A stretch of 64,000 bases of DNA from Escherichia coli (GTDB lineage Bacteria; Pseudomonadota; Gammaproteobacteria; Enterobacterales; Enterobacteriaceae). Below, piece after piece: positions 25,383 to 26,091 of this stretch. Location of the stretch: assembly GCF_003334405.1 (NCBI RefSeq), contig NZ_QOWM01000003.1; one strand, 5' to 3'. The notes beneath the pieces are model-generated. The model did not search any database. It was not told the DNA's origin and was given only the letters and a program-made list of their open reading frames with translations. Within the stretch, counting starts at the first letter, position 1; every line of letters begins with the position of its first letter. The position numbers and the translations under genes were made by a program.

Positions 25383-25664
25383 ATGAAACGACTACAGGCA
25401 TTCAAATTCCGGTTAAGACCAGGTGGTCAACAGGAGCGTGAAATGAGGCGCTTCGCAGGCGCATGTCGTTTCGTTTTCAATCGTGCTCTGGCGCTTCAGA
25501 ATGAGAATCATGAGGCCGGTAATAAATACATCCCTTACGGGAAAATGGCTTCCTGGTTGGTTGAGTGGAAAAATGCCACTGAAACGCAATGGCTTAAAGA
25601 TTCGCCCTCACAGCCATTGCAACAGTCACTGAAAGACCCTGAGCGGGCTTACAAAAACTTCTTC
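25383..25664 (+). pseudogene. tnpB: IS605-family TnpB (OrfB) N-terminal fragment
   Basis: 94 aa MKRLQAFKFRLRPGGQQEREMRRFAGACRFVFNRAL...ERAYKNFF matching the TnpB N-terminal domain; RuvC-like and zinc-finger regions absent. Confidence 0.75.
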
Positions 25665-25665
25665 C

Positions 25666-26091
25666 GGCTTCGTCACCACGCTCAAACGGTGTGCTACCTA
25701 TCGCGGCTATAAAAACAGCTTGTCCATCAGCACGATAGATAAAATAAGGCTGCTTTTTGTCGCCTTCTTTTTTCCACTCAAACCAGCCATCGGCAAAACA
25801 GATTGCCCGACCATGTTGCCAGAGCGGTTTAAACATGTGACTGGTTGCGGCAGTTTCTACGCGGGCGTTAATCAGCGGCGGTTTATCCCACCATCCGGGA
25901 GCATATCCCCAGAAAACCGGATCCAGATGAAGGTGTTCATCACGTTCACTGAGCAGAAGGACTTTGGTTCCCGGCGCGACGTTGTATCTGCCAATAGGTT
26001 CGGGATCGTAGGGAATATCGCGTTCAATATCTTCCGCGAGAAGCGCAAGGTAATCTTCACGCGTTTGGGATTGGGCAAAGCGTCCACACAT
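25666..26091 (-). pseudogene. yedK: SOS-response-associated peptidase YedK, 3'-truncated
   Basis: N-terminal ~142 aa MCGRFAQSQTREDYLALL... (catalytic Cys2 present), then the ORF runs into antisense tnpB sequence. Confidence 0.8.

Follow-up and report, generated by a model that had tools for sequence, protein, structure and literature searches.

The closest described counterpart of the open reading frame (ORF) examined here is Escherichia coli YedK, a SRAP protein (PF02586; structures 2ICU, 6NUA, and 6KCQ) that is 222 amino acids (aa) long in its native form and 226 to 229 aa long in the tagged PDB constructs. The phosphate anchor of YedK consists of Thr149 and Arg162, and either T149A or R162A alone abolishes the binding of single-stranded DNA (ssDNA); the thiazolidine link fits into a pocket lined by Ile147, Thr149, and Pro164, the opened sugar is in contact with His160 and Asp161, and downstream phosphates are bound by Arg206 and Asn210 (PMC6821365). 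His160 also works with Glu105 in ring opening as part of a Cys-Glu-His triad, and H160A/Q variants cross-link about 10-fold more slowly and have lost ring opening (PMC9436759). Two further systems serve for comparison: the insertion sequence (IS) IS609, represented by its copy in strain EDL933 (locus L003), and the short-homology deletions, or illegitimate recombination events, that turn genes into pseudogenes.

We compared these systems with a 64,000-nucleotide stretch of E. coli DNA, here called the window, which is chromosomal at this locus. Its gene order around the locus is fliF, fliE, emrE, ybcL, ybcM, tnpA, a tnpB fragment, a yedK fragment, yedF, yedE, yedD, and amyA. The reference loci are those of strain ST361 (L001), which has both an intact element and an intact yedK, and strain DE17 (L004), which has no IS. 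The features of the window are as follows:

24836 to 25360, minus strand: tnpA, an IS200/IS605 Y1 transposase gene with an altered 3' end; alignable with IS609 TnpA as far as residue 124 of 143
24991 to 25011, no strand: older deletion scar of an ompC-like porin gene, with its junction between 25000 and 25001, from comparison of DE17, ST361, and the window
25004 to 25011, no strand: junction of the left deletion, with one copy kept of a perfect 8-bp microhomology (GCAGCTAC), from comparison of L001 with the window
25383 to 25665, plus strand: 5' fragment of tnpB, about 94 of 402 codons, for an IS609-like RNA-guided endonuclease InsQ/TnpB; aligns with residues 1 to 95 of EDL933 IS609 TnpB
25594 to 25665, minus strand: out-of-context tail of 23 codons (GRSFCKPAQGLSVTVAMAVRANL) plus stop, from the ORF translation; antisense to the tnpB fragment, aligning with L001 4593 to 4664 within tnpB
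25653 to 25666, no strand: right deletion junction, between 25665 and 25666, from a side-by-side comparison of the window with both L001 flanks
25666 to 26091, minus strand: yedK codons 1 to 142, the N-terminal two-thirds of the SRAP domain, from the PDB YedK match and Pfam SRAP

The YedK part and its antisense tail

The mechanical ORF list contains a 165-aa ORF at 25594 to 26091 on the minus strand. An initial annotation of this DNA, made from the sequence alone, had described it as YedK up to about residue 142 followed by a 23-codon tail, and the ORF list, the PDB sequences, and Pfam all agree with those coordinates and that division. In a PDB sequence search, residues 1 to 143 match E. coli YedK (6kcq, 2icu, 6nua, and others) with an E value of about 1e-97, and residues 1 to 142 are about 97% identical to K-12 YedK, a similarity that, judged on the sequences, is not due to chance. 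The alignment stops at residue 142/143 (...STPFERGDEA), and the tail that follows has no YedK counterpart. Pfam SRAP likewise covers only model positions 1 to 138 of 214, which leaves the domain incomplete, with about 36% of it missing. The claim that the C-terminal third had been lost is thus borne out. Alignment with full-length YedK places the native end at residue 222 rather than near residue 165, and the truncation stands.

What remains and what is gone can be read against the structures. The fusion ORF begins MCGRF, which keeps the Met-Cys2 nucleophile; Asn75 and Glu105 are aligned and identical to the PDB YedK sequences, and Trp67/Trp68 and Arg77 are also present. Unlike YedK, it lacks residues 143 to 222 and carries 23 unrelated residues in their place. 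His160 of the triad lies beyond the end of homology, both phosphate-anchor residues (Thr149 and Arg162) were in the deleted part, and so were Asp161, Arg206, Asn210, and the part of the thiazolidine pocket formed by Ile147, Thr149, and Pro164. The initial statement that the catalytic N-terminus is retained is therefore right for Cys2, Asn75, and Glu105 but understates the damage, which extends to these C-terminal residues.

With His160, Thr149, Arg162, and part of the thiazolidine pocket gone, the 165-aa product is almost certainly inactive. Going by the sequence, it would probably be misfolded and should neither bind ssDNA nor form the thiazolidine cross-link at abasic sites. Measured by His160, by Thr149/Arg162, and by domain completeness, the ORF is best described as a fragment of a YedK/SRAP gene and would not be a functional member of the family. 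The coverage of both the PDB sequences and Pfam rules out a separate candidate, that of a native short YedK isoform.

Expression of the fragment is possible. In the window and most of the carriers sampled, the ORF is open and retains its start codon and native Shine-Dalgarno sequence (AGGAGG). A scan of 24600 to 26450 for the sigma-70 consensus gave no promoter-like sites. The window's yedK allele has one private change, P124A. A terminator-like hairpin lies at 25593 to 25575 on the minus strand, directly after the stop codon of the fused ORF; four such sites were found where 1.8 were expected, and this one is probably a chance occurrence. Between the yedF stop and the yedK start, at 26167 to 26192, there is a perfect-looking inverted repeat (CCCGCTGTGGGCCACAGCGGG) that is conserved in all the loci compared and is not followed by a T-run; it may be the yedF terminator or a REP-like hairpin.

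Two deletion junctions and an IS609-like remnant

BLAST against the intact ST361 locus defines the right junction. Positions 25004 to 25665 of the window align with L001 4003 to 4664, which holds tnpA and the 5' part of tnpB. Homology on the yedK side starts at 25653/25666, and the window from 25666 onward equals L001 from 5876 onward, within yedK. Since IS homology runs to 25665 and yedK-side homology begins at 25653/25666, the breakpoint lies between 25665 and 25666, in agreement with the sharp junction initially placed at about 25664 to 25666. The single deletion proposed at the time, running from within tnpB into yedK, also holds up: intact strains differ from the window here by one gap, L001 4665 to 5875, of 1,211 bp. 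This deletion removed tnpB codons about 95 to 402, the right end of the IS, and yedK codon 143 through the end of the gene. Exact homology at the breakpoint amounts to one base (C), within an imperfect match of about 11 nucleotides between AAAAACTTCTTCC on the tnpB side and AAAAATCCTTC on the yedK side. We also considered insertion of an IS at yedK codon 142. This candidate is ruled out, as the junction shows internal tnpB sequence instead of an IS terminus and the window lacks the 3' end of yedK.

The remnant is cut at its other side as well. IS homology in the window is confined to 25004 to 25665 and begins abruptly at 25004. In ST361, the 8-bp sequence GCAGCTAC occurs at L001 3325 to 3332, in a remnant of porin signal-peptide codons, and again at 4003 to 4010, in tnpA; the window has one copy with the outer flanks of the two. 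The 678 bp lost between them held the 5' remnant of the porin gene and its upstream region, the left end of the IS, and the 3' end of tnpA. In keeping one copy of an 8-bp direct repeat, the left junction resembles the short-homology deletions known to make pseudogenes, as do the two deletions in size, about 0.7 and 1.2 kb. The right junction, with its single exactly matching nucleotide and imperfect match of about 11 nucleotides, is unlike them.

The left deletion altered the transposase gene. The last 19 TnpA codons (GGAPISAIRQYIEQQQTPG), which include RQYIEQQ, are replaced in the window by 55 non-IS codons. Pfam Y1_Tnp still matches the window's tnpA (E = 5e-33; model positions 2 to 106 of 121), and the HUH motif is kept (PDHVHLLI), but the C-terminal tyrosine motif RQYIEQQ is absent. 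We take the RQYIEQQ of IS609 TnpA to correspond to Tyr127 in the C-terminal helix of IS608 TnpA and thus presume that it holds the catalytic tyrosine. PGAP labels the gene in carrier genomes as an intact 174-aa "IS200/IS605 family transposase." It is in fact a fusion, and because the presumed catalytic-tyrosine motif has been lost, this 174-aa product is most likely a dead transposase.

The central 662 bp are 95.8% identical to IS609 and share its organization, with the greater part of tnpA, the intergenic region between the divergent genes, and about 94 codons from the start of tnpB. Unlike IS609, the remnant lacks the TnpA C-terminal RQYIEQQ, about 77% of tnpB, and both termini; neither IS end, as defined in L001 and L003, occurs in the window, and full-length TnpB (402 aa) is absent. 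We therefore assign the piece, on its sequence, to an IS609-like remnant that would be unable either to transpose or to make the TnpB nuclease, because the termini, RQYIEQQ, and most of tnpB are deleted. The remnant diverges by 3.3 to 4.4% from full-length IS609 copies, and by 4.4% from the ST361 copy, compared with 1.5 to 3.3% for the flanks. No RNA family was found in the intact locus L001 (Rfam, gathering threshold) or in the window at 20000 to 30000 (Rfam, E up to 0.1), so no curated TnpB-associated RNA was placed.

Intact relatives of the locus

A 1.5-kb query was at least 80% covered in 2,070 of 5,426 complete genomes, and in some of these genomes the match was split into three, with InsQ/TnpB and yedK both full-length. 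An intact IS beside an intact yedK at the same locus occurs in ST361 and about 960 other genomes. The initial annotation had called for a comparison of related strains, and intact yedK turned out to exist both with the IS, as in ST361, and without it, as in DE17. The order in ST361 is ybcM, 584 bp of AT-rich DNA, the IS609-like element, and yedK, with the following genes:

L001 3943 to 4374, minus strand: tnpA
L001 4382 to 5590, plus strand: tnpB
L001 5630 to 6301, minus strand: yedK, 223 aa

In DE17 (L004 1493 to 2715), an ompC-like porin gene with a 1,083-bp coding sequence lies between ybcM and a 222-aa yedK. Comparison of DE17, ST361, and the unrelated IS609 copy in EDL933 delimits the IS609-like element to 1,747 bp (L001 3887 to 5633), whose left end adjoins TTATC in both ST361 and EDL933. 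The insertion site is 3' of TTATC within the yedK stop codon, where the IS-less sequence reads GGCTTATC followed by AAACAGG (TTATC followed by AAACAGG, L004 3266 to 3272). With the IS in place, YedK ends in QPVC instead of QPV before the stop, one Cys having been added to give 223 aa. Outside the right end of the IS, strains with the intact element have the antisense of the last yedK codons. The flank of a TnpB element's right end would supply the guide portion of the TnpB RNA. Both IS ends are missing from the window, and the remnant's position and orientation, along with the shared porin scar, suggest that the insertion site would have been that of ST361.

The porin scar is common to the window and ST361, which have the same junction, CGTTAA followed by GATGCAGC. 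What remains of the porin gene is 11 bases (GATGCAGCTAC) in the window and about 41 bases of its 5' end in ST361. Just left of the scar, at L001 3272 to 3312, ST361 has a tandem duplication of roughly 20 bp (CGTTGTTATTAAATCTAGTT) in two copies, and the window has one.

The emrE-ybcL-ybcM block occupies window positions 22800 to 24679, between fliE and the IS remnant. In K-12, these three genes presumably belong to the DLP12 prophage, and yedL/yedN/yedM/intG presumably occupy the position between fliE and yedK. If these K-12 gene positions hold, the interval from fliE to yedK is a variable junction prone to carry islands. Polymorphism in E. coli is also unusually high in the 3' third of yedK. 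Its last 229 bp, which the window lacks, are present in only 4,248 of the 5,426 genomes, and 3,895 of these are only 90 to 95% identical to the DE17 allele, which points to allelic lineages that split deeply or to recombination at the boundary.

Distribution, history, and consequences

Using a 100-bp probe across each junction, with coverage of 80% or more, we found the right junction in 1,111 and the left junction in 1,109 of the 5,426 complete E. coli genomes; the sampled matches included no genome that had one junction and lacked the other. The yedK 3' end never occurs in more than one copy per genome, and its presence in 4,248 genomes fits carriers that lack that end altogether. Carriers include ZH193, which belongs to a published set of ST131 strains (PMC4850260). 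In avian-pathogenic E. coli (APEC) O78:H4 and in isolates from pig, cattle, and humans, the locus matches the window exactly or almost exactly over 12 kb. Substitutions among carriers were compared for the loci L005 and L008, with L002, L006, and L007 set aside: over 1,520 bp, AVS0750 (L005) and ZH193 align with the window without gaps, with 30 and 11 substitutions, respectively. Such gap-free alignments with 11 to 30 substitutions indicate that the allele is old. The tnpB fragment of AVS0750 differs from that of the window at 11 positions in about 300 bp, and its yedK fragment has an additional nonsense codon, Q7* (L005 2872 to 2874, equal to window 26071 to 26073), as expected of an unconstrained pseudogene.

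In carrier loci identical to the window, PGAP/RefSeq already treats the tnpB and yedK pieces as pseudogenes, "incomplete, missing C-terminus"; in NCCP15648, for example, PGAP calls the yedK stretch [quoted passage not shown] A literature search combining yedK and pseudogene returned no paper on this yedK allele, as far as titles and the openings of abstracts go. Beyond what the initial annotation had described, the IS remnant is cut at its other end too, the original position of the IS was within the yedK stop codon, and the allele is frequent and has pseudogene status in existing annotation.

We consider it highly probable that this is a decaying pseudogene locus produced by stepwise deletions after insertion of an IS609-like element. 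The ancestral order would have been ybcM, an ompC-like porin gene, and yedK, after which a deletion would have taken most of the porin sequence. The 1,747-bp element, with divergent tnpA and tnpB, would then have entered the yedK stop codon 3' of TTATC, with its right end directly against the gene and its left end on the far side, and with the single added Cys as its only effect on YedK. In the order that we infer for the two later losses, a spontaneous 1,211-bp deletion by illegitimate or slippage-type recombination at very short, imperfect homology would have come first, joining yedK codon 142 to antisense tnpB that by chance was open for 23 codons; slippage is a tentative mechanism at this junction, where exact microhomology is 1 nucleotide only. 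A separate deletion of 678 bp between the two copies of GCAGCTAC would then have taken the left end of the IS and the 3' end of tnpA. The result would be an immobile IS remnant and a YedK fragment. About 20% of complete E. coli genomes have inherited this allele.

The almost equal numbers of carriers of the two junctions (1,111 and 1,109), along with the lack of a one-junction genome among the sampled matches, would also fit an origin of both junctions in one complex rearrangement, such as template switching during repair. However, the data are accounted for just as well by two simple deletions on a single ancestral branch, the intervening 662 bp are colinear and in their original orientation, and later changes, for example an IS5 insertion in strain 104, account for the difference of two genomes, so we regard a single event as unlikely. 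The same near-complete linkage, and the fact that each deletion takes an IS end, could be laid to the element's own enzymes, through either aberrant strand cleavage by TnpA or a TnpB-guided double-strand break followed by end joining; the yedK 3' end flanks the right end of the IS in the intact arrangement and, on general knowledge, would supply the TnpB guide. We find a role for TnpA or TnpB improbable because the four breakpoints all lie in tnpA, tnpB, or flanking DNA, away from the IS termini and the TTATC target. Moreover, a TnpB cut would be expected only at an empty donor joint, leaving no IS, and the left junction is a classic 8-bp microhomology.

It is very improbable that the 165-aa fusion has been kept as a working, shortened SRAP protein with a new role, even though its ORF, start codon, and AGGAGG site are intact in the window and most carriers examined and the allele is frequent. 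Only 138 of the 214 SRAP model positions are left, residues whose single substitution abolishes ssDNA binding are gone, and the tail is antisense IS sequence; the nonsense codon in one carrier and the private P124A in the window allele point the same way, and descent within large clones explains the frequency of the allele. An assembly or sequencing artifact, that is, a chimeric join, has a negligible chance of being the explanation given the identical junction in 1,111 independently assembled complete genomes.

The locus is a real but ordinary case of gene decay beside an insertion sequence, already annotated and of little mechanistic weight. Three nested deletion scars within about 700 bp form a tidy case of stepwise erosion at the variable junction between fliE and yedK, and the adjacent tnpA is intact according to RefSeq yet lacks the presumed catalytic-tyrosine motif and both IS ends. 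It is quite improbable, in our estimation, that about one-fifth of sequenced E. coli, including a strain of the ST131 set and APEC O78:H4, are either natural YedK-null strains or strains expressing an N-terminal SRAP fragment with Cys2 and Glu105 in which either state measurably alters the tolerance of abasic sites in ssDNA and hence the mutation spectrum. Were this true, a retained SRAP fragment with a new activity would be a more surprising version than a YedK-null state. An intact yedK is missing from many E. coli lineages in wide use for research, which makes these lineages natural knockouts for studies of abasic-site protection of the SRAP/HMCES type, and results from K-12 should not be assumed to apply to them.
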